Below, in pieces: positions 8,960-59,427 of a DNA stretch of 64,000 bases (within the stretch, counting starts at the first letter, position 1; each line of letters opens with the position of its first letter). Position numbers and translations under genes: made by a program. The notes under the pieces were generated by a model, which saw only the letters and a program-made list of their open reading frames with translations, was not told the DNA's origin and did not search any database. Location of the stretch: the NCBI GenBank assembly GCA_964611625.1, contig CAZTAM010000003.1, forward strand, positions 311,960-375,959, given 5' to 3'. The stretch is from an uncultured Nitrospiraceae bacterium. GTDB taxonomy: Bacteria > Nitrospirota > 9FT-COMBO-42-15 > HDB-SIOI813.

Positions 8960-9033
8960 TGGGGGATCGTCTAATGGCAGGACGACAGTCTCTGGATCTG
9001 TCTATCGAGGTTCGAGCCCTCGTCCCCCAGCCA
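8960..9033 (+). tRNA. tRNA-Gln (anticodon CUG)
   Basis: Hand-folded cloverleaf: perfect acceptor stem TGGGGGA/TCCCCCA, D-loop GG, anticodon loop CTCTGGA, T-arm CGAGG-TTCGAGC-CCTCG, encoded CCA. Confidence 0.85.
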
Positions 9034-21601: not shown

Positions 21602-24600
21602 TTATTCAGACCCCCTTTTCCGGCTGAACATACCTCGCAATGATAACGTCTGAGACTGGTAATAGAGCACCGGCACAACCACCAGTGTCAGCAGTGTGGC
21701 TGCAGCCAGGCCGAATATGACTGCTACCGCCATTGGCCCCCACCACTGAGCTGATTCGCCTCCGATTTCCAGGGATAAATTTCGGAAGTCGAAACTCACC
21801 CCGACTGCCATGGGAAGAAGGCCCAGGATTGTTGTCACTGCCGTGAGCATGACCGGGCGAAAGCGCACGAGACCAGCATGAATGAGCGCCTCACGCAGTT
21901 CCATTCCCTTATTTCTTAACTGATTGATATAGTCAATGAGTACGATGGCATTGTTTACGACCACACCTGCCAGGGATATGACTCCGATGCCGGTCATGAT
22001 AATGCCGAAAGGTGTTGCGGTAACCAGCAGGCCCATGAAAACTCCGGTTAGCGACAGGATAACGGATGTCATGACTATCAGCATTTGTAGAACTGAATTG
22101 AACTGGGTAAGGAGGACAAGTGCTATTAGAAAGACCGCAACGATGAAGGCCTTCCCAAGAAAAGCAGATGCCTTCTGCTGCTCTTCCTGTTCGCCGGAGA
22201 AATTGATCTTATAACCGGCGGGCAGCTCGATTCCTGACAACCGGGTCTGTACATCTTTCAATACCTCGTTGCTGTTTCGGCCGAAAGTGTTGGCGGAGAT
22301 GGTCACCACCCTATTCTGATCAATGTGGCGGATGGCTCCGAAACCAGTCTCCATCTCTATCCTGGCAACTGTGGAGAGTGGAACGGGGGCTCCTGTCCTC
22401 GTCGGAATAAGGAGGCTGCCGATATCACTAAGGCTCTGCCGTCGGGGTTCAGGCAGGCGGGCAATGATGTCATATTCGTCCTTGCCTTCTCGGTAAACTC
22501 CAAGCTTGCTTCCGCTGATTGCAGCCTTGACTGTGCTGGAAATCTCCGCGGTGGAGAGCCCCAGCAGGGTTGCTTTATTCCGGTCAACCAGCACCCTTAT
22601 CTCAGGTTTGGCCTTTGAGAAATCGTCCTTGAGATCAACCAGTCCCGGAACATCTTTTACCAGGGATTTGGACTTCTCTACCAGCGACTCAAGAGTTTCG
22701 ACCACTTCTCCGCTGATCTCTATGTTTACGGGCGGACCTGTGGGTGGACCCGTCTCTTCTTTTTCCACCTTGATCTCTGCCCCGGCCATGGAGGCAACCG
22801 CCTCCCGTATGCGTCCCAGCACGATATTGGAATTCTCTCTGCGCTTCTCCCGCTCGACAAAGTCGAGGGAAATTTTACTAAAATTAGACTGAGCACCGGC
22901 ACTGCTGCCGGCTTCGCCACTCGCGCCAACTCCGACCTCAGCAATAATGAATTTAAGATCCTTTTCCGGACTGGCAGCCTTCTCCACAATCATAGCCAAC
23001 TGGTTGGATGTCTCCAGGTTAGCCCCTTCCGGTGCCTTGATTTCGACGAATGCCCTGTTAGGCTCCGTATCCGGGAAGAGCTCTACCCCATGACCCAACA
23101 GACTGTATCCGGCAATGATAAGAAGCAGCAATGTAAGCGCCCCGCCGACTACCAGTCCCCGATGATCAAGGGATTTCCCCAGAATCCAGCGATACATACC
23201 TAATATGCGCATTTGCTCATCAACGCCGCCTGTGCTGCTGCGGCTGACACGCATAAATGAAGCACAGAGTACCGGGTTGATGACCAGGGCTACCAGCAGT
23301 GATGCCGTCAGAACTATGATAAGGGTCATGGGAAGATATTTCATGAACTCGCCCATCACCCCAGGCCAGAACAACATGGGACCGAATGCGCACAGAGTGG
23401 TCAGTGTCGAGGATATAACCGGCCAGCCGACCTCGCTTACCGCCCTGCGTGCAGCGCTGATCCGGTCATCACCTTCCTGCATGTGCCGGTATATGTTCTC
23501 AACGATTACGATGGCGTTGTCTACCAGCATCCCAAGTGCCAGGATCAGGCTGAACAATACTACCATGTTTAGGGTGATTCCCATCGCCTGAATGACGGCA
23601 AAGGACAGGAGCATGGAAAATGGGATCGCCGATGCGACAAATATGGCGCTGTTCAATCCCAGAAAAAAGAAGAGTACCGCAACCACAAGAATCAGGCCGG
23701 TTAGGATGTTATTCTCCAGATCAGAGACCATGGTCCGGATGTCCCTGGATTGGTTCAGCGTTACGGACAGCTCGACCCCCGCCGGAACCTGCTTCCGGGC
23801 CTCTTCAAGCAGCGCAAATACATGGTCGGCGACTGCGATGATGTTCTCGCCAGTCCGCTTCTTCACCGCAAGTGTCACGCTGCTTCTACCGTTGAGCCTG
23901 GCATGGCTTGTGCGGTCTTCAAAAGTGTCGCGGACCACTGCAACATCCTTGAGGTAGATCGGGCGGCCGTCACGGCTTGCCACCATCAGGGTGTCCACCT
24001 CGTCCGGGCTGGTGAACTCCCCGGGTATGCGGAGGAGGTATTCTCCCCGCCCTATATCGAGGCTGCCGCCTGGGATGTTGACATTTTCGCGTTGAACGGA
24101 CTGAAGTATCTCGGCAAAAGAGAGTCTGTAGGCGAACATTCTGTCAGGGTTGAATTCCACCCTGATTTCCCTCTCCCGTCCACCCGCAAGATTCACCTCC
24201 AGAACGCCTGGAATCGCTTCAATCCTGTCCTCCAGTTCTTCCGCCACACGTTTGAGAACCGTTTCCTCAACATCACCGGAAACAGCAAGCATCAGAATCG
24301 GAAACTCCGAAAGGTTGACCTCGAAGATAACAGGATCGTTTTCCAGATCTTCGGGGAGATCCCCTTTGGCCTGATCAACTTTGTCGCGCACCCACTGTAT
24401 GGCGTTGTCGATGTCTACCCTGGGAGTAAATTCAATAGTAATCACTGAGGAACCCTCGGCACTGACTGATCTGATTTCTTCCACGTCCCTGAGGCCCTTT
24501 AGCTTGCGTTCTATTGGCAGGGTAATGAGGGTTTCAATGTCCGATGGCGCAGCCCCCTCATAGGAGGTGACCACCATAACATACGGTATTGTGATGTCAG

Positions 24601-24712
24601 GGGACGATTCACGCGGAAGTGTAATGTAGCTGTATGCCCCAATTACAATAAAAAAAACCATCAGGGCGAAGATTGTGCTGCGATGGCCAATGGCTGCATC
24701 AGATATCAGCAT
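21602..24712 (-). CDS. RND efflux transporter permease (AcrB/CzcA superfamily)
   Basis: About 1040 aa, 12-TM RND architecture; track start is TTG at 24733, internal ATG at 24712 gives an AcrB-like N-terminus. Confidence 0.85.
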   Translation of the reverse strand: MLISDAAIGHRSTIFALMVFFIVIGAYSYITLPRESSPDITIPYVMVVTSYEGAAPSDIETLITLPIERKLKGLRDVEEIRSVSAEGSSVITIEFTPRVDIDNAIQWVRDKVDQAKGDLPEDLENDPVIFEVNLSEFPILMLAVSGDVEETVLKRVAEELEDRIEAIPGVLEVNLAGGREREIRVEFNPDRMFAYRLSFAEILQSVQRENVNIPGGSLDIGRGEYLLRIPGEFTSPDEVDTLMVASRDGRPIYLKDVAVVRDTFEDRTSHARLNGRSSVTLAVKKRTGENIIAVADHVFALLEEARKQVPAGVELSVTLNQSRDIRTMVSDLENNILTGLILVVAVLFFFLGLNSAIFVASAIPFSMLLSFAVIQAMGITLNMVVLFSLILALGMLVDNAIVIVENIYRHMQEGDDRISAARRAVSEVGWPVISSTLTTLCAFGPMLFWPGVMGEFMKYLPMTLIIVLTASLLVALVINPVLCASFMRVSRSSTGGVDEQMRILGMYRWILGKSLDHRGLVVGGALTLLLLIIAGYSLLGHGVELFPDTEPNRAFVEIKAPEGANLETSNQLAMIVEKAASPEKDLKFIIAEVGVGASGEAGSSAGAQSNFSKISLDFVEREKRRENSNIVLGRIREAVASMAGAEIKVEKEETGPPTGPPVNIEISGEVVETLESLVEKSKSLVKDVPGLVDLKDDFSKAKPEIRVLVDRNKATLLGLSTAEISSTVKAAISGSKLGVYREGKDEYDIIARLPEPRRQSLSDIGSLLIPTRTGAPVPLSTVARIEMETGFGAIRHIDQNRVVTISANTFGRNSNEVLKDVQTRLSGIELPAGYKINFSGEQEEQQKASAFLGKAFIVAVFLIALVLLTQFNSVLQMLIVMTSVILSLTGVFMGLLVTATPFGIIMTGIGVISLAGVVVNNAIVLIDYINQLRNKGMELREALIHAGLVRFRPVMLTAVTTILGLLPMAVGVSFDFRNLSLEIGGESAQWWGPMAVAVIFGLAAATLLTLVVVPVLYYQSQTLSLRGMFSRKRGSE

Positions 24713-25796
24713 TTCCGGTTCCCTCTTCAGCAACTGCGGACCCGTCGCTAACCAGGTGCTGACCTTTTACAATGAGCCGCTCACCAGGTGTGAGCCCTTC
24801 TTCTATCACTGCCATATTGCCGATAATAGGCCCGACTTTTACTTGACGAAGATGTGCTGTGCCGCCCTGTTCGACATAGACGACTTTGATCCCATCGCGT
24901 TCCACCAGGGAATAAAGTGGGACTGCGATTACCTGAGAGAGCTTACGGCTCAGGAAAGCGACACGAATGATCATCCCAGGGCGCAGTGATCCCGCCTTGT
25001 TGTCGACAGCGATCTTGGCCTGGTAAGTCCTGGTTGCCGGATCTGCCTGGTAGGATAGATGGATGATCTCACCTGCGAATCCCTGACCTGCCCCTCCTTC
25101 TACCGGAGCGGCAAAGACCCGGGCTTTTTCTCCAACAGTCAGTTTCATTATGTCCTTCTCAGGTACATCTACCAGTGCCCGCAGCCGGTTGACCTGCATA
25201 ACAACCGCTGCGGCGTTCCCTTCGGCAATATACTCGCCCCGGTCTATCAACAGGCGATCGAGAATACCGTCCACAGGGCTGCGAATTGTGCTTTTGTCAA
25301 GGGCTACCCTTGAAAGCCTCAACTGGGCCTGAGCCTGTTCAAATGCCTTAGTGGAATCTTCGAATTCCTGCTGGCTGATAAGATTGCTCTGAACAAGGGA
25401 GAGGCGGCGTTCCATGCGCTTTTTCTGCAGTTCGTACTCGACCTCATCACGTGCCAACTCCGCTTCAAGTCTTTCCGGATCGATGCGCAGGATGGTATCT
25501 CCCTTTTTCACCCTGTCTCCTTCTTTGGGGCCAATCCATTTCACAGGACCGGACATTTCAGCTGCCAGGGTCAGATCCTCCCAGGCTTCCAGAGTTCCGG
25601 GGAGAGTCAGGTTCACCGAGAGATTTTGCTTTACGACAGTGCTGAGGGAAACGTTGGTGACCTTTATCCGATGCGGATCTGGCAATACTACTTTGGTTTC
25701 ATCACTGCCGGAATTATCGCATCCGCTGAAAAGAAGTACCACCAGAAGAAGCGGAAGGCAGGCAGGGTGATTCAGGAGAATATTCTTTAGCTTCAT
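24699..25796 (-). CDS. RND efflux periplasmic adaptor (membrane fusion protein), lipoprotein
   Basis: Lipobox LLFSGC; HlyD-like lipoyl and beta-barrel regions; ATG at 25796. Confidence 0.8.
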   Translation of the reverse strand: MKLKNILLNHPACLPLLLVVLLFSGCDNSGSDETKVVLPDPHRIKVTNVSLSTVVKQNLSVNLTLPGTLEAWEDLTLAAEMSGPVKWIGPKEGDRVKKGDTILRIDPERLEAELARDEVEYELQKKRMERRLSLVQSNLISQQEFEDSTKAFEQAQAQLRLSRVALDKSTIRSPVDGILDRLLIDRGEYIAEGNAAAVVMQVNRLRALVDVPEKDIMKLTVGEKARVFAAPVEGGAGQGFAGEIIHLSYQADPATRTYQAKIAVDNKAGSLRPGMIIRVAFLSRKLSQVIAVPLYSLVERDGIKVVYVEQGGTAHLRQVKVGPIIGNMAVIEEGLTPGERLIVKGQHLVSDGSAVAEEGTGNADI

Positions 25797-25862
25797 CACT
25801 GGTCTCCGGATTTTGACATTTATACTCCACGTAAGTAATTAAAGTTGCCTGCAAGAAAAACC

Positions 25863-34898: not shown

Positions 34899-35486
34899 TC
34901 AGCAGCGCAGTTTTTTTGTTACTTCAATCAGCCTGTTTGTCATAAACCTTGAAACAACAAGGTCTGTTTCGTTAGGCTCACCTGATGACAATGCACCATA
35001 GTACGAACCTGCCTTATACAGCTCTTTGACATTTCCAGGGATTCCTACAATTATCATACCATGGGCAAGAAATGTGGGATACATGGAAAGCAGTGTTGCC
35101 TCCTGTCCGCCATGTATCATCTCTGCAGAAGAAAATGCCGAGACAGTTTTTCCTATTAATGACCCTTCCATCCACAGTTTTCCGGTCTGATCCCAGAAAT
35201 TCCTCATAGGAGCAGCCATGTTGCCAAATCGTGTTGGTGAACCAACAATGAGGCCATCCATCCATATCAGGTCATCTACTACTGCATCGGGAATATCTGA
35301 CATCTGTTCGTACATAGCCTTCCATTCAGTGCTATTTTCAATAACTTCTGCAGGAGCAAGTTCTGCAGCTTTTCTAAGTCGCAATTCAACTCCTGATGCC
35401 GCAACATCCTTTGCAATAGAGCGGGCCATCTTGAGCATATGTCCTGTCTTGCTGTAAAACAGTACTAATATTCTTGCAGCAGCCAT
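34899..35486 (-). CDS. wrbA: NAD(P)H:quinone oxidoreductase, flavodoxin-like (WrbA family)
   Basis: ILVLFYSKTGH flavodoxin N-terminus; internal ATG at 35486 with SD GGGAGGTG preferred over track start 35591. Confidence 0.75.
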   Translation of the reverse strand: MAAARILVLFYSKTGHMLKMARSIAKDVAASGVELRLRKAAELAPAEVIENSTEWKAMYEQMSDIPDAVVDDLIWMDGLIVGSPTRFGNMAAPMRNFWDQTGKLWMEGSLIGKTVSAFSSAEMIHGGQEATLLSMYPTFLAHGMIIVGIPGNVKELYKAGSYYGALSSGEPNETDLVVSRFMTNRLIEVTKKLRC

Positions 35487-35676
35487 AACGCACCTCCCTG
35501 AGTAAGTTGAATTTATATCCTGATTTAAGGTTAACACACTGAATGTTATCCTACAAGTTGATATTAAAAAAACAGATGACCCACTTGACAAAGTGTGATC
35601 AAGTCATTATTCTAATATTAAGTCTTGTTTCGATATTATGCAACTAATGAAGTAATCCCTTTTCTGGAGAATTATT

Positions 35677-37959
35677 ATGGCATCAAAGCTTACTGAGTTT
35701 TCAGTAGAAAGACCTAAGACTACTGTCATTACAGTTATAATATTGACGCTTATATTTCTATTACAATTTCCAAAGATCTCGATTGATACTGACCCTAAGA
35801 ACATGCTGCCGGAGACATCTCCTGTCCGTGTATATAACGATCAGATTGAATCTCTCTTTTCACTTCACAAAGACATGATAGTCCTCGGAATAGAAAATCC
35901 ACAGGGCCTGTTCAACCGGGCAACGCTTGAACGTGTAGCTCGTTTTACGGACGAGATTATGAGGCTTAAAGGTGTTGTCATACCTGATATTATGAGTCTT
36001 ACGACCGTTGATAATATCCTGTCTGAAAATGGACAATTGACAGTACGCCCTGTCATGGATCATATCCCTCAATCCAGGGAAGAGTTGGAAAAACTTCAGA
36101 ACGAGATATTTGACAATCCCATACTGATTGGAAGGCTTGTCTCGCAAGACAGGACAACTACTGCCATTTATGTACCTCTCGAAGAGGGGGCGAATGCGAA
36201 GGTGATTGCCGACGGTATAAGGGAAATAGTCAGCAAAGAAAAAGGAGATGAGCGCTATTATGTCGCGGGTGATCCAGTTGCAAGGGACACGTTTGGCAGC
36301 ACAATGTTCCTTCAGATGAGGATATTCTCGCCAATCGCAGGAATTATCATGATGATTACCCTTTTTATAATGTTCCGCAACATCACACTTGTCGCGGCCA
36401 TGATGTCTGTAGCATTTCTAAGCATCATATGGAGTATGGGACTTTTAATAGGATTGGGCTTTCCTGTGCACATCATGAGTTCCATGATACCTGTATTTCT
36501 AATGGCAATTGCAACTGACAGTGTACATATATTCAATGAATTTTATTTCAGGCTGAAGGAGGTACGTAATAAAAAGCAGGCAATCCTTGAGACGCTTACA
36601 GTTGTTGGCCCTGCAGTCAGATATACTGCTTTAGCAACCGCAGCAGGTTTCGGCGTGCTTGTGTTCATGCATATTATACCGGTAAAGGTATTCGGTGTAT
36701 TTGTGGCATTCGGGACTATAGTAATAAGATTAATGAGCTTCAGCTTCATACCGGCATTAATGATGCTGACCAGTGATAAGAAATTGCTGCGCATGGCTGA
36801 TCGCGAAGATGCAGAGTCAGGCAGCGGAAATGCATGGCTCAGAAAGCTCGGGGATACCGGTTACCACAAATCCGGCATTGTTATCATTGTCGGTGTTGTT
36901 ATGCTTGCTTTGGCAATAGTCGGATTGACCCAGATACGTGTAAACAACAACATGGTCTCATGGTTCAAGAAAAGCAGTGACATAAGACAGGCAGACACGG
37001 CAATGAATGGAAAGCTTGCAGGTACTGCCTCTGCGTACATAGTTGCCGAGTCTCCTGATATTGATGCCATGAAAGATTATCATAATCTCAAGGCAATTGA
37101 GGAACTGCAAAAAGAGCTGGGTAAACTTCCTGTTGTTGGCAAGACGACATCCATTGCAGATATAGTCAAGAGGGTAAACAAGGTGCTGCACGGAAATGAT
37201 CCTGAATATGACACTATTCCGCAGTCATCTGAAGAGATTGCACAATATCTGTTTCTGTTCGGCATGTCGGCAAAACCGCGTGATCTTGAGAACGTAGTAA
37301 CTGCAGACTATGATAAGGCGAATATTTTGCTTCAGCTAAAGACGTGGGACGCAATTGCCATGCGGGAAGTACTGAAGAAAATCGGGGAATTTCAGTCATC
37401 TAATCCGGGTGTCAGCCTGCAGTTTAAACCCGCCGGAATATCATATTTTAATATGGTATGGAATGATGAGGTCCTGTTTGATATGATTAAGGGATTCATC
37501 CTGGCGCTGATCGTAGTATTTATTATATTAGTGATTAATTTCAGATCAGTAAAGTGGGGGCTTATAAGCTTCGTTCCCCTGCTCTTTACTATTTTAATCA
37601 TTTATGGGTTTGTCGGCTTTATTGGCAAGGACTTTGATATGCCTATTTCAGTGCTGTCCGCCATGTCGCTCGGTATGGCTGTCGATTTTGCAATTCACTT
37701 CATCAGGCGGTTTCAGCAGAAGTATGCAGAAGAGAGGGATCAGGAGAAGGCGATAATATGGACTGCTGCACGGCCTGGCAAGGGGATAATCAGAAATGCC
37801 ATCCTCTTTGCCTCTGCTTTTTCAGTAATGATATTTGCCCCTCTGACCCCGTATGTAACAGTTGGAATCTTTATCGCAGGGATGATGGTGATAAGTTCCA
37901 TTTTGACGCTTCTCTTTCTGCCGGCAATTATCCGGGTTGCGGGCAGGCGGGTGGTGTGA
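35677..37959 (+). CDS. MMPL/RND-superfamily exporter
   Basis: 760 aa, two repeats of 6 TM helices each with a periplasmic loop; SD GGAGA. Confidence 0.7.
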   Translation: MASKLTEFSVERPKTTVITVIILTLIFLLQFPKISIDTDPKNMLPETSPVRVYNDQIESLFSLHKDMIVLGIENPQGLFNRATLERVARFTDEIMRLKGVVIPDIMSLTTVDNILSENGQLTVRPVMDHIPQSREELEKLQNEIFDNPILIGRLVSQDRTTTAIYVPLEEGANAKVIADGIREIVSKEKGDERYYVAGDPVARDTFGSTMFLQMRIFSPIAGIIMMITLFIMFRNITLVAAMMSVAFLSIIWSMGLLIGLGFPVHIMSSMIPVFLMAIATDSVHIFNEFYFRLKEVRNKKQAILETLTVVGPAVRYTALATAAGFGVLVFMHIIPVKVFGVFVAFGTIVIRLMSFSFIPALMMLTSDKKLLRMADREDAESGSGNAWLRKLGDTGYHKSGIVIIVGVVMLALAIVGLTQIRVNNNMVSWFKKSSDIRQADTAMNGKLAGTASAYIVAESPDIDAMKDYHNLKAIEELQKELGKLPVVGKTTSIADIVKRVNKVLHGNDPEYDTIPQSSEEIAQYLFLFGMSAKPRDLENVVTADYDKANILLQLKTWDAIAMREVLKKIGEFQSSNPGVSLQFKPAGISYFNMVWNDEVLFDMIKGFILALIVVFIILVINFRSVKWGLISFVPLLFTILIIYGFVGFIGKDFDMPISVLSAMSLGMAVDFAIHFIRRFQQKYAEERDQEKAIIWTAARPGKGIIRNAILFASAFSVMIFAPLTPYVTVGIFIAGMMVISSILTLLFLPAIIRVAGRRVV

Positions 37960-38017
37960 GGCTGGTGATAGCCAGTGGTAAATAGTCCGGGGGCAGACTA
38001 TAGAAAAGGGGGATGTT

Positions 38018-38812
38018 ATGAAGATATGTATAAAATTACTTATACTGTTTTTTCTGGCTGTCAGCATTAATCCGTCGTTAGTTCATGCAGAAGATGCATC
38101 TGATATTGTCAGCAAATCTCAGGATGCCTTTTTCTCTCAGGGCAGGGATATGAAGGCAAGGGTAAAAATGACCCTGTTGTCCAAATCAGGTCAGCAGAGA
38201 TTGAGAGAACTTACAATGCTGCGCAGGAACGGCACCGGGGGCGAGCAGAAATACTTCATGTATTTTCACAACCCGGGTGATGTTCGCGGCACATCATTCA
38301 TGGTCTATAAGTATCCTGGAAAAGATGACGACAGGTGGATATTCATTCCGTCCATAAAACTCGTTAACCGTATCGCGGCCAAAGACAGCAGATCAAGCTT
38401 TGTCGGATCAGACTTTACATATGAGGATGTGTCAGGACGGGATATCGAAGCTGACAGTCACAAATACCTCAGAGAAGAACCGCTTCAGGGAAAACAGTGT
38501 CATGTCATTGAGAGTACCCCGAAGAACCCTGCTGAATATACCAGAAAGATATCATGGGTTGACAAGGCAACGTATCTGCCGCTTAAAGATGAGTATTATG
38601 ATGTCCAGGGATCACTCTATAAGGTATTTACAGCAGATAAGGTTGATATCGTCGAAGGACTACCCACAATAACAAAAAGGAGCATGGCCAATATAAAGAA
38701 CGGCCATAAGACAGAAGTAGTATTCGATAATGTCTCTTACAATGTCGGTATTACTGATGATGTTTTCTCAGAGAGGTATCTGAGGAAACCATCAGATAAG
38801 TGGATAAAATAG
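38018..38812 (+). CDS. LolA-like outer-membrane lipoprotein-sorting family protein
   Basis: Signal peptide then a ~240-aa beta-rich domain; resembles the family commonly adjacent to MMPL exporters; SD AAAGGGGGA. Confidence 0.55.
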   Translation: MKICIKLLILFFLAVSINPSLVHAEDASDIVSKSQDAFFSQGRDMKARVKMTLLSKSGQQRLRELTMLRRNGTGGEQKYFMYFHNPGDVRGTSFMVYKYPGKDDDRWIFIPSIKLVNRIAAKDSRSSFVGSDFTYEDVSGRDIEADSHKYLREEPLQGKQCHVIESTPKNPAEYTRKISWVDKATYLPLKDEYYDVQGSLYKVFTADKVDIVEGLPTITKRSMANIKNGHKTEVVFDNVSYNVGITDDVFSERYLRKPSDKWIK

Positions 38813-38817
38813 GCCGA

Positions 38818-40056
38818 ATGAATATAATACATTATCTTCTCACAATTATTATAATTTCAAATATAACTGCCGGCGTCTATGCCCAGGATATCTCATTTCA
38901 CGGCTTTATACAGGGAAACATGTCTGCCAGGATTACAGGGGAAGAGACACCTGACGGCAGTGAAGGAGGAGACTATCTCTCAGGGGAAGAAAGATTCCGG
39001 GGGGAGATTACCGGCAGCTCCGGATCTGCTGCCTTTACACTGAAGACGGACTTTGTCCATGACTCTGTTTCAGATGAAGACAGGATTGACATCAGGGAGG
39101 GCTATATAGATTACAGGTCACATAACTATGACCTGAGGGCCGGCAGACAGATAATTACATGGGGAGCCGGGGATCTGCTGTTCATCAATGACACATATCC
39201 CAAAAATTATTCAGCCCTGTTCTCAGGCCAACCGCTGGAATATCTTAAGACAGGTTCAGATGCTGTAAAGTTGTCTGTATATTCTGAGATGTTTTCTGCT
39301 GATTTAGTAGTAATTCCCTTCTTTGAACCTTATCAGCTTCCTGACTCTGAGAGATATTTTATGTATAAGCCGATGAATATAACCGGTACAGAACTGCCGA
39401 GGGAAGAGATCGAAAATACTGAAGCTGCCCTGAGGGTGTACAGGCAGTTTGGACGCTTTGATACATCCATCTATTTGTACCGGGGATTTTATAAAATACC
39501 TGGGGTGAAACCGATATCCCCGGCTGATGCAGAACTCTTCTATCCTCAGCTTGCCGTCTATGGATTCAGCATGCAGGGGGCTTTTGCAGACGGTGTTATA
39601 AGCATAGAAAGCGGCTACTATGACTCCCTTGATGACAGGAATGGAGATGACCCAGCAATATCTAACTCGTCCACAAAATATATCCTTGGTTATTCAAAAC
39701 AAGTCTGGACTGATTTCACAGCAGGTGTGCAATTCTACGGAGAATATATGCAGGATTATAACAGATATGAAGACTCCCTTCCTGAAGGTTTTCCCAAAAC
39801 CGATCAGATTCATCAGCTGATAACCTTGAGGCTGACACAGATGCTCAAATACAATACGGTACGGTTAAGTCTTTTTTCATTCTACAGCCCGGACGATGAA
39901 GACTACTTTATAATTCCGGAAGCCAGATATAACATTACGGACTCCTTATGGATATCTGCTGGGATCAATATATTTGGAGGAAAGGACACAAGAACATTCT
40001 TCGGACAGTTTGACAGGAACGACAACCTGTTTACTACTGTCAGGTACGAGTTTTGA
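38818..40056 (+). CDS. Putative outer-membrane beta-barrel protein
   Basis: Signal peptide (…AGVYAQD), alternating Tyr/Gly/aromatic pattern, C-terminal ...VRYEF; track GTG start at 38800 overlaps upstream gene. Confidence 0.35.
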   Translation: MNIIHYLLTIIIISNITAGVYAQDISFHGFIQGNMSARITGEETPDGSEGGDYLSGEERFRGEITGSSGSAAFTLKTDFVHDSVSDEDRIDIREGYIDYRSHNYDLRAGRQIITWGAGDLLFINDTYPKNYSALFSGQPLEYLKTGSDAVKLSVYSEMFSADLVVIPFFEPYQLPDSERYFMYKPMNITGTELPREEIENTEAALRVYRQFGRFDTSIYLYRGFYKIPGVKPISPADAELFYPQLAVYGFSMQGAFADGVISIESGYYDSLDDRNGDDPAISNSSTKYILGYSKQVWTDFTAGVQFYGEYMQDYNRYEDSLPEGFPKTDQIHQLITLRLTQMLKYNTVRLSLFSFYSPDDEDYFIIPEARYNITDSLWISAGINIFGGKDTRTFFGQFDRNDNLFTTVRYEF

Positions 40057-56990: not shown

Positions 56991-57150
56991 ATTACTGCCA
57001 GATAGTCTCTACCGCAGACTTCAGTTCTACCTAAACTCCATTGTTAGTCCGCATGATTTATCATTCACTCATATTCATAAACCAAATATCCTTTGCACTA
57101 TCATCTTAGAAATGTTATTATTTTTCGCTTATCGAAAGGTTTTTAATATT

Positions 57151-59427
57151 ATGATCTGCCGGCTTATTTCTTTCTTTATATTTCTGTTATTGTGCACTGG
57201 AATATATTTCCCATTATCCACTATCTGTCACGCAGAGGGTGAATCCCATATAATACAGATTGAAGTAAGCGGAAACAGACGCATAGAGACATCAACTATT
57301 CTTTCAAAAATCAGGTTGAAGACCGGTGATATTTATTCAGCAGCTTCAGTTCGGGAAGATATAAAAGGCCTGTACGAAACAGATTACTTCGAAGATATAA
57401 GGGTGGAGACCGGGACATCAGAAGACGGCGTTATATTAATCTATAAGGTTAAAGAACGGCCAATCCTGAGGGATGTGGCATATGACGGCAATGACAAGAT
57501 AGCTGCTGACAGGCTGAAGGAGAAGGTGACCTTCATTACCGGCGTTACTGTAAGCCAGAAACAGGTAAAAGAAAATGTTGAGAGACTGCGGGAGCTTTAC
57601 AGGGAAGACGGCTATTATGAGGCAACAATAATACCAGTCGTAACCAGGACATCGGAGGATGCTGTCTCCGTTACTTTCTTTATCAAAGAGGGCAGAAAAA
57701 TAAAAATTAAAGATGTGGTTGTTACCGGTACATCAGAAATATCCGAATCAAGCCTCATAAAGGTCATAGGTACAAAGCGCTACAAGCTGCTGACTTCATG
57801 GATAACAGGGGCAGGCATCTACAAGGAAGTTGAAGCCCAGAATGATGTTGACAGGATACGTGACTACTATCTGGACCGCGGCTATGTACAGGTGCAGGTA
57901 AGCGGTCCTGACATTGAAATATTGGAAGGCGGGTTATGGATGAGACTCACCTTCCATGTAACTGAGGGAGAACAATACAGCATCAGGGGGATTGATTTCA
58001 AAGGTAATGACATATTTACAAGGGATAAAATTGAAGAAAGGATCAAACTTCGCAAGGGATTGATCTTCAGCAGAAAGACCTTGCGTGAAGATATTGGATT
58101 GATAACTGATATGTATGGTGAAAAGGGGTACGCATTTGCAAATGTATTCCCTGATATAAGGCCGGATGATCACTCCAGGACCATTGATATAATATTCAAC
58201 ATTGAAAAAGGAGAAAAGGTAAAGGTAAGGAAGATTAATATCAGCGGTAATGAAAAGACGCGGGACAAGGTAATTCGGAGGGAAGTAAGATTAAGCGAGC
58301 AGGACTATCTTAATACAACTGCCCTGAGAAGGAGTTTTCAGCGTATAAATAACCTGAATTTCTTTGAGAATGTAGAGATTGTCCCTGATACTGTCAGCAG
58401 GGATATGGTTGACCTTAATGTGAGGGTCAGGGAAAAACCTACGGGGGCATTCAGCATGGGAGGCGGTTACAGCTCAGTATATGGACTGGTAGGGATGCTG
58501 GATGTAACTGAGGGCAACCTCCTGGGCAGAGGTGAACTTCTTAAGGTAAAGGGTGAGTTTGGAAGACTCAGGACAAGCTATAATCTAACATTCAAAGAGC
58601 CCTGGTTTATGGATAAACCTACTTCAGTAACGGTAAATCTTTTCGATACCGTCAGGACATTCGATGCCTACGATGTAAACAGCAGCGGCGGTAATATCGG
58701 TGTCGGCAAGTCATACGGTGAATACTGGGGCGGCAGCATTACATATGGGATACAGAATATTACCGTCAGCGGTGAACCTCCATCCGGTGTTGATAAGGGT
58801 ACATCTACTACCGGTAGCTTAATGACGTCAGTGTCCAGGGATACGAGGGATAATTACTGGGATCCTCGTTCAGGTAACAGAAACAGCATCTCTTTAGAAT
58901 ATGCTGACAGATTTCTGGGCGGTGACAATTTATTTGTGAAATATATACTTGATACAACATGGTATTACCCTTTGCCGCTCGACAGTGCTATCATGTTTCA
59001 TGGCAGATATGGAGAAGGAAGGGGATTCAATGGAGATCACCTCCCTGCAAATGAGAAATTCTATGTCGGCGGTATTTATACAGTAAGGGGCTTTGATTAC
59101 GGCAGGGCTACAACACCTTCAACAGTATCAGGCGATCCCGTGCACGGAGATCTTTTAGGTGCTGACAAGGAACTGATATTTAATATAGAATATGTTGTCC
59201 CTCTGGTTAAGGATGCCAGGATAAACGGGGTATTATTTTATGATGCCGGTTCAGGTTTCGGAAAAACTGACACCGTTGCATTGTCTGACCTCAGGACGAG
59301 TGCCGGGGGCGGTTTCAGGTGGTTCTCTCCTATCGGGCCGTTACGCCTTGAATGGGGATATAATCTTGATCCGAGACCAGGAGAGCGGCAGAGTATCTGG
59401 GAATTTTCCATTGGAACATTGTTTTAG
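57151..59427 (+). CDS. bamA: Outer membrane protein assembly factor BamA
   Basis: Signal peptide, POTRA repeats, C-terminal barrel ending with aromatic residue; ATG 57151 preferred over track start 57112. Confidence 0.9.
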   Translation: MICRLISFFIFLLLCTGIYFPLSTICHAEGESHIIQIEVSGNRRIETSTILSKIRLKTGDIYSAASVREDIKGLYETDYFEDIRVETGTSEDGVILIYKVKERPILRDVAYDGNDKIAADRLKEKVTFITGVTVSQKQVKENVERLRELYREDGYYEATIIPVVTRTSEDAVSVTFFIKEGRKIKIKDVVVTGTSEISESSLIKVIGTKRYKLLTSWITGAGIYKEVEAQNDVDRIRDYYLDRGYVQVQVSGPDIEILEGGLWMRLTFHVTEGEQYSIRGIDFKGNDIFTRDKIEERIKLRKGLIFSRKTLREDIGLITDMYGEKGYAFANVFPDIRPDDHSRTIDIIFNIEKGEKVKVRKINISGNEKTRDKVIRREVRLSEQDYLNTTALRRSFQRINNLNFFENVEIVPDTVSRDMVDLNVRVREKPTGAFSMGGGYSSVYGLVGMLDVTEGNLLGRGELLKVKGEFGRLRTSYNLTFKEPWFMDKPTSVTVNLFDTVRTFDAYDVNSSGGNIGVGKSYGEYWGGSITYGIQNITVSGEPPSGVDKGTSTTGSLMTSVSRDTRDNYWDPRSGNRNSISLEYADRFLGGDNLFVKYILDTTWYYPLPLDSAIMFHGRYGEGRGFNGDHLPANEKFYVGGIYTVRGFDYGRATTPSTVSGDPVHGDLLGADKELIFNIEYVVPLVKDARINGVLFYDAGSGFGKTDTVALSDLRTSAGGGFRWFSPIGPLRLEWGYNLDPRPGERQSIWEFSIGTLF

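Follow-up and report, generated by a model that had tools for sequence, protein, structure and literature searches.

A 64-kb stretch of DNA from an uncultured Nitrospiraceae bacterium (contig CAZTAM010000003.1), referred to here as the window, carries three adjacent genes on the forward strand that are predicted to encode an inner membrane pump, a periplasmic carrier and an outer membrane barrel. The first gene (positions 35677..37959, 760 amino acids) encodes an MmpL/HAE3-like transporter of the resistance-nodulation-division (RND) type, the second (38018..38812, 264 amino acids) a LolA-like periplasmic carrier of the PF17131 type, and the third (38818..40056) a predicted outer membrane β-barrel of 412 amino acids when read from the ATG at 38818, or of 418 amino acids from an alternative GTG at 38800. 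An initial annotation of the window had described three co-directional genes with a 58-nt gap followed by an overlap. The common direction and the 58-nt gap between the pump and carrier genes were confirmed, but the overlap of the second and third genes hinges on GTG 38800. The ATG at 38818, located 5 nt past the stop codon of the carrier gene, is more likely to be the true start, because it is used in a barrel homologue that is 97% identical and is shared by all 30 homologues aligned. A sequence scan revealed no convincing terminator between the three genes, and a single operon is the best explanation of their arrangement.

The pump is a member of the RND superfamily of the MMPL type. It matched the Pfam MMPL model PF03176 over two stretches with an E-value of 7e-42 (144 bits versus a gathering cutoff of 20.5) and also matched the sterol-sensing and Patched models. 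The AlphaFold2 model of the protein (predicted local distance difference test score, pLDDT, 88.5; predicted template modelling score, pTM, 0.82) showed 12 transmembrane (TM) helices in a 1+5/1+5 arrangement, which together with the MMPL match bears out the 760-residue exporter of two six-helix repeats put forward in the initial annotation. In the same model, the two periplasmic domains, of ∼165 amino acids each, comprise about residues 37-198 and 420-587 and would be too small to span the periplasm. Foldseek placed the model nearest to MmpL4/5, MmpL3, NCR1/NPC1L1 and HpnN, with TM scores of 0.70-0.77 (about 0.75 to MmpL4/5). All these proteins transport hydrophobic cargo. Across 40 pump orthologues, D281 and H284 of TM4 were conserved in 37 and 40 sequences, respectively, while D670 and H674 of TM10 were present in all 40. 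We take these to be the positions at which RND proteins keep their proton relay and, judging by position, both pairs may act in such a relay. The best NCBIfam match was HAE3 (TIGR00921, TC 2.A.6.7; 7e-60), whose 202.9 bits lie below the curated cutoff of 351.9. HpnN and BstA models gave weak matches. Scores for HpnN reached 109.8 versus 751.85 bits with TIGR03480 and 44.6 versus 1100 bits with NF052374, and the MmpL3 model gave 29 bits versus a cutoff of 1400. Membership of the pump in the HpnN, BstA and MmpL3 families was ruled out on the basis of scores that fall far below the curated cutoffs. No hpn (hopanoid biosynthesis) genes were present among the annotated flanks in the window.

The second protein carries an SPI-type signal peptide and no lipobox, a motif also lacking in 59 of 60 orthologues, and is predicted to be a soluble periplasmic protein. 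It matched the Pfam family LolA_like (PF17131, TP_0789-like) over its full length (2.7e-62; 210.2 bits versus 30; profile positions 1-184 of 184), in agreement with the secreted LolA-like protein of the initial annotation. A partial match to DUF1329 (PF07044; 1.6e-8; 34.7 bits versus a cutoff of 23.1), covering only positions 263-343 of the 368-position model, marks the carrier as an apparent short form related to that family. The carrier also matched MucB_RseB, and the Pfam and NCBIfam scans returned no canonical LolA-family match. Its closest solved relative is LolA3 of Porphyromonas gingivalis (PDB 9TP6; 1.1e-39), a protein described as a LolA paralogue, followed by 3BK5 (2e-32), 4Z48 (4e-32) and 3BUU.

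The third protein begins with a signal peptide and ends in RYEF, a C-terminal β-signal, and 80 of 81 orthologues end in F. AlphaFold2 modelled it as a β-barrel (pLDDT 80.6), and fold comparison revealed a resemblance to solved 18-stranded barrels. As modelled, the protein is an outer membrane β-barrel of the 18-strand class (Occ/OprD, AlgE, Wzi-like). A profile of the barrel family searched against PDB sequences gave no match, and only the fold comparison succeeded. With the DUF1302 model (PF06980), the window protein scored 18.3-18.8 bits versus a cutoff of 23.2, over only ∼50 residues of a 541-position model, and its Pfam match to Wzi was also below the gathering score. DUF1302 was, however, matched by 24 of 30 barrel homologues at E≤0.01, the best at 1.3e-9. 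These results indicate that the barrel is a short, distant relative of DUF1302 and not a member by the Pfam rule. Taken together, the model, the two signals and the DUF1302 matches of the homologues support the barrel suspected in the initial annotation and argue against a soluble or unrelated protein. The most conserved segment of the barrel, residues ∼109-148, contains the motif GRQIITWGxGDLLFIND and forms a long loop between strands 5 and 6, in which G109, R110, T114, W115, G116, G118, D119, N124, D125, P128 and K129 are invariant. This segment is also the only part of the barrel with a pLDDT below 50 in the AlphaFold2 model. The topology suggests an in-barrel constriction loop of the L3 type, a loop that in porins is folded into the lumen, and residues 109-148 are likely to serve as a functional in-barrel loop or as a partner-binding site. 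The barrel family is large, with 2052 representative clusters (50% identity) at E≤1e-3.

Conservation of the three-gene module

One genome per species was scanned with the barrel profile, which yielded 80 loci; the counts below refer to loci with enough DNA to judge. A LolA-like gene was found upstream of the barrel gene in 62 of 64 loci and an RND gene in 47 of 50, and the order pump, carrier, barrel on one strand was kept in 55 of 56. In the three loci where the RND gene was not detected, inserted extra genes push it beyond the sequence covered. The LolA-like gene is absent from loci L037 and L041; in the latter, the 2.8 kb available upstream of the barrel gene contain no RND gene either. 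The loci with the trio span Nitrospirota, Desulfobacterota, Zixibacteria, Elusimicrobia and Omnitrophota, the best homologues come from Nitrospirota metagenome-assembled genomes (MAGs), and even a rearranged locus (L064) retains all three genes.

Searches that started from the other two proteins led to the same arrangement. From the pump, we retrieved a metagenome RND protein (L092) of 57% identity whose gene is followed by a carrier gene and then a barrel gene. From the LolA3 sequence of PDB 9TP6, we retrieved a Bacteroides zoogleoformans locus (L089, 5602-10045) encoding an MMPL protein (793 amino acids), LolA3 (260) and a barrel (420) in that order. In Porphyromonas macacae (L090, 3883-13556), the order is TetR, MMPL, a small open reading frame, a methyltransferase, LolA3, barrel and two ATP-binding cassette (ABC) exporters, and on a P. 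gingivalis contig (L091) LolA3 is preceded by MMPL and followed by the barrel. The Bacteroidota proteins aligned over their full length with those of the window, with E-values of 1e-35 to 1e-47 for the pump, 1e-42 for the LolA-like protein and 1e-26 to 1e-28 for the barrel. In contrast to these linked pumps, the distant RND homologues of two Flavobacterium loci (L088, L093) stand alone, with neither carrier nor barrel, which argues that the partnership is a property of the clade of the window pump and not of every HAE3-like pump. Chance adjacency of the three genes was ruled out by the conservation statistics over the related loci. The co-occurrence anticipated in the initial annotation thus extends, with the same order in almost all loci, across phyla. 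These data are best explained if the module is ancient and portable and has come under the control of various stress regulators, namely ArsR in Nitrospirota and their relatives and TetR in Bacteroidota.

The connection of LolA3 with an RND and barrel module seems to be unreported, since neither RND nor MMPL turned up in a full-text term search of the paper on the LolA3 structure (PMC13103446) or in the passages of PMC11885536 that deal with LolA3.

Neighbouring genes in relatives and in the window

All open reading frames of the 80 loci were clustered in order to find recurrent neighbours; the counts describe the loci of relatives and not the window. An ArsR-family regulator lies directly upstream of the module in 39 loci. 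A flavoprotein resembling sulfide:quinone reductase (SQR), with CxGPxYE and CxxDxG motifs, occurs in 29 loci, DsrE in 24, DsrH in 18 and DrsE_2 in 18. A class-I S-adenosylmethionine (SAM) methyltransferase of 224 amino acids, often encoded between carrier and barrel, is present in 23 loci, and SelD and TauE in 10 each, while YedE/YeeE-like proteins and rhodaneses also recur beside the module. Among the 56 loci that span 9 kb or more, 50 hold at least one of ArsR, SQR, DsrE, DsrH, DrsE_2, methyltransferase, SelD, TauE, YedE or rhodanese. The order of these neighbours varies between phyla, which argues for a functional link rather than for inherited synteny. In relatives, the trio thus forms part of a conserved island, which in loci L003 to L081 (for example L015 1-9185, L024, L027, L045 and L078) reads ArsR, in some cases a YedE-like protein, DsrE, DsrH, the SQR-like flavoprotein, DrsE_2, RND, carrier, in some cases the methyltransferase, barrel and, in some cases, SelD and TauE, an arrangement that we did not find in the literature searched. 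Some of the island loci also hold rhodaneses, a divergent pair of CopD-like and ArsR genes and a DedA-like protein. The closest relatives of the window module (67-76% identity) keep ArsR, and some of them also DsrE or the methyltransferase. A small secreted protein of Gly/His/Met-rich repeats (HGDMMQG), encoded between the barrel gene and selD in a MAG of Candidatus Sulfobium (L020, 3868-4251), looks like a periplasmic protein that binds soft metals or metalloids.

The methyltransferase was also found fused to the pump. Six clusters (P0271-P0276) of RND proteins of 1060-1080 amino acids carry a class-I SAM methyltransferase at their C-terminus, and at one locus (L083 4773-7979, with the same genes in L084) the gene for such a fusion, of 1068 amino acids, has a PF17131 gene upstream and a gene for a 657-amino-acid DUF1302-like barrel downstream. 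Other fusions, to a cyclic nucleotide (cNMP)-binding domain (P0286) and to an aminotransferase (P0296), occur in more distant RND homologues. An alignment showed a single conserved cysteine in the methyltransferase, unlike the multi-cysteine pattern of ArsM, and its best NCBIfam match, the DVU_1556 family, scored far below the cutoff. The alignment of the ArsR proteins revealed no conserved cysteine pattern that would point to the sensing of persulfide or of a metalloid. Lipid-biosynthesis genes were not among the conserved neighbours in the 80 loci, nor did a COG4447/Ycf48-like β-propeller gene recur across them, and no polyketide or fatty-acid synthase genes were found near the module in the related loci.

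In the window, the operon is flanked by housekeeping genes, namely a WrbA-type NAD(P)H:quinone oxidoreductase, two large helicase/nuclease-like genes, ribE/ribD, the pyruvate phosphate dikinase gene and glyS. One of the two large genes carries UvrD-helicase domains, and we read the pair as AddAB-like. The WrbA-like open reading frame (34899-35591, − strand) is listed from a TTG with an N-terminal extension of 35 residues; family models match only from residue 39, so translation probably begins at the ATG (Met36) near 35486. With this start, wrbA and the pump gene share a divergent intergenic region of ∼190 nt, in which a σ70-like promoter candidate (TTGACA-17-TATTCT, 35585..35613, + strand) lies 64 nt upstream of the start of the pump gene. 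The candidate comes from a consensus scan that gave 19 promoter-like sites where 12.1 were expected and is therefore weak evidence. At the other end, the barrel gene (+) and ribE (−) converge, their 3′ ends overlapping by 17 nt (40040-40056), and no terminator-like hairpin was detected between them at this site. Further along the window, a gene at 57112-59427 (+) encodes BamA, with five POTRA repeats and an Omp85 domain, from which it follows that the organism is diderm and has an outer membrane. BamA, the three tRNA genes (at 8960, 20831 and 56915), nusA-infB and glyS mark an ordinary chromosomal core region. A second RND pump, of the classical AcrB type (1043 amino acids), is encoded with a membrane-fusion protein (366 amino acids) at 21602-25799 (−), in a patch of G+C 0.50-0.54 versus ∼0.43 elsewhere in the window that was possibly acquired horizontally.

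A candidate export route across the envelope

The predicted locations of the three proteins in the inner membrane, the periplasm and the outer membrane fit an envelope-spanning route, as the initial annotation had supposed; of the two substrates named there, lipids and lipoproteins, the latter is unlikely in view of the published LolA3 data. On balance, we think it probable that the trio forms a three-component export route for a hydrophobic small molecule or lipid, driven by the proton motive force. From homology and the structure model, the MmpL/NPC1/HpnN-like pump, with its acidic/histidine pairs in TM4 and TM10, would extract the cargo from the inner membrane. It would then pass the cargo to the PF17131 LolA-like protein, which may shuttle across the periplasm or be docked under the barrel; given that the periplasmic part of the pump falls short of the outer membrane, a soluble or barrel-docked carrier is the natural intermediate. 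Finally, the cargo would enter or cross the 18-strand-type DUF1302-like barrel, where the conserved L3-type loop may gate or guide its passage. The direction of transport would be outward, by analogy with what is known of RND transporters.

Regarding the cargo, our leading guess is a stress-related hydrophobic product, such as a zero-valent or organo-sulfur/selenium species or another methylated lipophile, because in relatives the methyltransferase recurs beside the module or is fused to its pump and because sulfur and selenium genes are linked to it, which is guilt by association only. The cargo may therefore not be a classical membrane lipid. That it is specifically a chalcogen is a doubtful proposition, and we hold in equal doubt the broader idea that the module is a missing diderm route by which hydrophobic zero-valent chalcogen species are expelled across the periplasm and the outer membrane. 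If it were so, the cargo could be S8 or polysulfanes produced by an SQR at the cytoplasmic face, elemental or organo-selenium, or SAM-methylated derivatives of these; the PF17131 protein could act as a chaperone for sulfur or selenium lipophiles, and the window operon could be an orphaned copy.

Several observations weigh against the export route as proposed, or against the reading of its cargo. The pump scores under the curated HAE3 and HpnN cutoffs and the barrel under the DUF1302 gathering cutoff. The 64-kb window contains no homologue of ArsR, SQR, DsrE, the methyltransferase, SelD or TauE and, with the module there among housekeeping genes, the cargo is deduced by orthology only. The similarity of the methyltransferases across phyla lies mainly in the SAM-binding core. 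Besides, the contexts differ, being sulfur and selenium in the relatives of the window, iron and nitric oxide (NO) in Bacteroidota and terpenes or hydrocarbons for the long-form cassettes, which could reflect different cargos or a general envelope function. Finally, the experimental record of the compact subfamily consists of expression data, the LolA3 structure and lolA3 mutant data.

A serious rival, although one that we judge unlikely, is that the module constitutively delivers a bulk or structural lipid of the inner membrane (hopanoid-like, phospholipid or methylated, e.g. N-methylated phospholipid) to the outer membrane for membrane biogenesis or homeostasis, in the manner of HpnN, MmpL3 or the sterol system BstABC. 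The closest folds of the pump, MmpL3, HpnN and NPC1/NCR1, are all lipid transporters, its weak NCBIfam matches are to HpnN and BstA, the window context is one of housekeeping genes with no regulator beside the operon, and the small class-I methyltransferase could be a lipid methyltransferase. However, most relatives have a gene for a stress-type repressor (ArsR or TetR) immediately ahead of the module, and the conserved neighbours include no genes for lipid biosynthesis. In agreement with a stress function, the PG1178-81 unit of P. gingivalis responds to NO stress and to a shortage of iron or hemin with increased expression, and in both P. gingivalis and P. intermedia the module shows some of the strongest induction of all genes under iron depletion and NO stress (PMC10434189, PMC11018363). 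Also against a constitutive lipid route, a lolA3 deletion of Flavobacterium johnsoniae caused no gliding or secretion defect in the assays reported (PMC11885536).

It is more improbable still that the LolA-like protein and the barrel form an outer membrane complex with a role of its own, either structural or in FadL-like uptake of hydrophobic nutrients, with the RND protein being only co-regulated, so that transport could run inward or the parts act separately. In favour of this reading, Pseudomonas stutzeri has its DUF1302/DUF1329 genes at a separate site from the BNR/RND genes, and under one condition the phenotypes of the two pairs were opposite (10.1101/072470). Hydrocarbon degraders, for which uptake would make sense, induce DUF1302/DUF1329 genes (PMC13101534, PMC6394551), and a stable DUF1302-DUF1329 complex has been predicted (PMC13499233). 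On the other hand, the RND gene is contiguous with the other two in 47 of the 50 loci assessed, the linkage persists through rearrangement (L064) and over a huge phylogenetic distance, the RND-methyltransferase fusion keeps both partners adjacent, and known RND proteins export rather than import.

A dedicated Lol-like route, in which the LolA-like protein would carry acylated proteins to the outer membrane, is suggested by the LolA-superfamily fold and by the database name 'outer membrane lipoprotein-sorting protein', but it is highly improbable: the name stems from structural-genomics annotation with no assay behind it, the partner is an RND protein and not a LolCDE-type ABC transporter, the homologue LolA3 is reported to lack the LolA arginine of the β2-β3 loop and the LolB leucine and binds LolB only very weakly (PMC13103446), and F. 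johnsoniae shows no gliding or secretion defect upon deletion of lolA3 and, when devoid of all LolA/LolB homologues, LolA3 included, still localises surface lipoproteins (PMC11885536). A Lol-type lipoprotein pathway was accordingly rejected on the basis of the lack of a canonical LolA match, the RND partner and the published LolA3 data.

Only for a few cargos, such as lipoproteins, lipopolysaccharide and some phospholipids, is it understood how a hydrophobic molecule gets across the aqueous periplasm. The export route proposed here would be a widespread candidate for such crossing, with more than 2000 barrel clusters at 50% identity in many phyla, an RND motor and a LolA-fold carrier. It would give the LolA3/PF17131 proteins, of which four crystal structures exist without a function, a concrete and testable role, and make a probable exporter of PG1178-81, a unit induced by stress in the pathogen P. 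gingivalis. Moreover, the conserved methyltransferase and the sulfur and selenium neighbourhood point to how cells may dispose of lipophilic sulfur or selenium products.

Comparison with known systems

The pump resembles HpnN (hopanoids), MmpL3/4/5 (mycobacterial lipids and siderophores) and NPC1-type transporters in its fold (TM 0.70-0.77), its 12 TM helices, its small periplasmic domains and its intramembrane charged relay. HpnN, MmpL and NPC1-type transporters hand hydrophobic cargo to partner proteins. Unlike HpnN and MmpL3, the window pump misses all curated family cutoffs, and no transporter of the HpnN/MmpL/NPC1 type is known to work with a LolA-like carrier plus a barrel.

In the ApeM/ApeL/ApeN layout of aryl-polyene export, the MMPL-type ApeM is accompanied by LolA/LolB-like proteins. 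The module shares with the aryl-polyene and flexirubin clusters the reported association of a LolA-like protein with RND-containing genes for bringing a hydrophobic pigment to the outer membrane, whereas those clusters are biosynthetic, encode canonical-type LolA/LolB-like lipoproteins and have no DUF1302-like barrel. The flexirubin pair LolA2/LolB2 is described in PMC11885536.

The operon PG1178-PG1181 of P. gingivalis, which includes LolA3 (PGN0947/PG1179; PDB 9TP6), encodes the same homologous trio in the same order, MMPL, PF17131 carrier and DUF1302-like barrel, and no other member of the compact subfamily has both a carrier of solved structure and data on expression and mutants. Its proteins are only 22-32% identical to those of the window. 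In the Bacteroidota version, the neighbours are a TetR regulator and two ABC exporters, and ArsR and the sulfur and selenium genes are absent.

Systems of the general kind, in which an HAE3-type RND protein is combined with a DUF1302-type barrel and a LolA-superfamily protein, have already been published. Cassettes of DUF1302, DUF1329, Ycf48 and RND proteins have been proposed as envelope-spanning exporters of hydrophobic compounds (PMC6394551, 10.1101/072470, PMC13101534, PMC13499233). Deletion of AmeABCD lowers the monoterpene tolerance of Castellaniella defragrans (PMC6394551), genes for DUF1302, DUF1329, BNR and COG1033 proteins are cofit in several bacteria (10.1101/072470), expression of a four-gene DUF1302/DUF1329/Ycf48-like/COG1033-RND cluster is high in a benzene-degrading organism (PMC13101534), and the DUF1302-DUF1329 complex has been predicted with an interface pTM (ipTM) of 0.84 (PMC13499233). 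In the literature searched, we found no description of the compact version with PF17131 and a short barrel, of its breadth from Bacteroidota to Nitrospirota, of its identity with the LolA3 operon, of the methyltransferase fusion or of the association of the module with sulfur and selenium genes.

Like AmeABCD and the cassettes of Proteobacteria, including the 'Nanopod' cluster of ORM2a, the window module combines an HAE3/MMPL-type RND gene with genes for a LolA-superfamily periplasmic protein and for an 18-strand-class barrel of the DUF1302 type. Unlike AmeABCD, it comprises three genes instead of four, lacks the Ycf48/BNR (COG4447) protein and is flanked by wrbA-like and ribE genes. Its carrier is the short PF17131 form (264 versus ∼450 amino acids for DUF1329), its barrel has 412 versus ∼600 amino acids and lies below the DUF1302 gathering cutoff, the RND gene comes first, and the regulators and neighbours also differ. 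All in all, the window module is a compact, three-gene, short-form version of the DUF1302/DUF1329/Ycf48/COG1033 (AmeABCD) cassettes.

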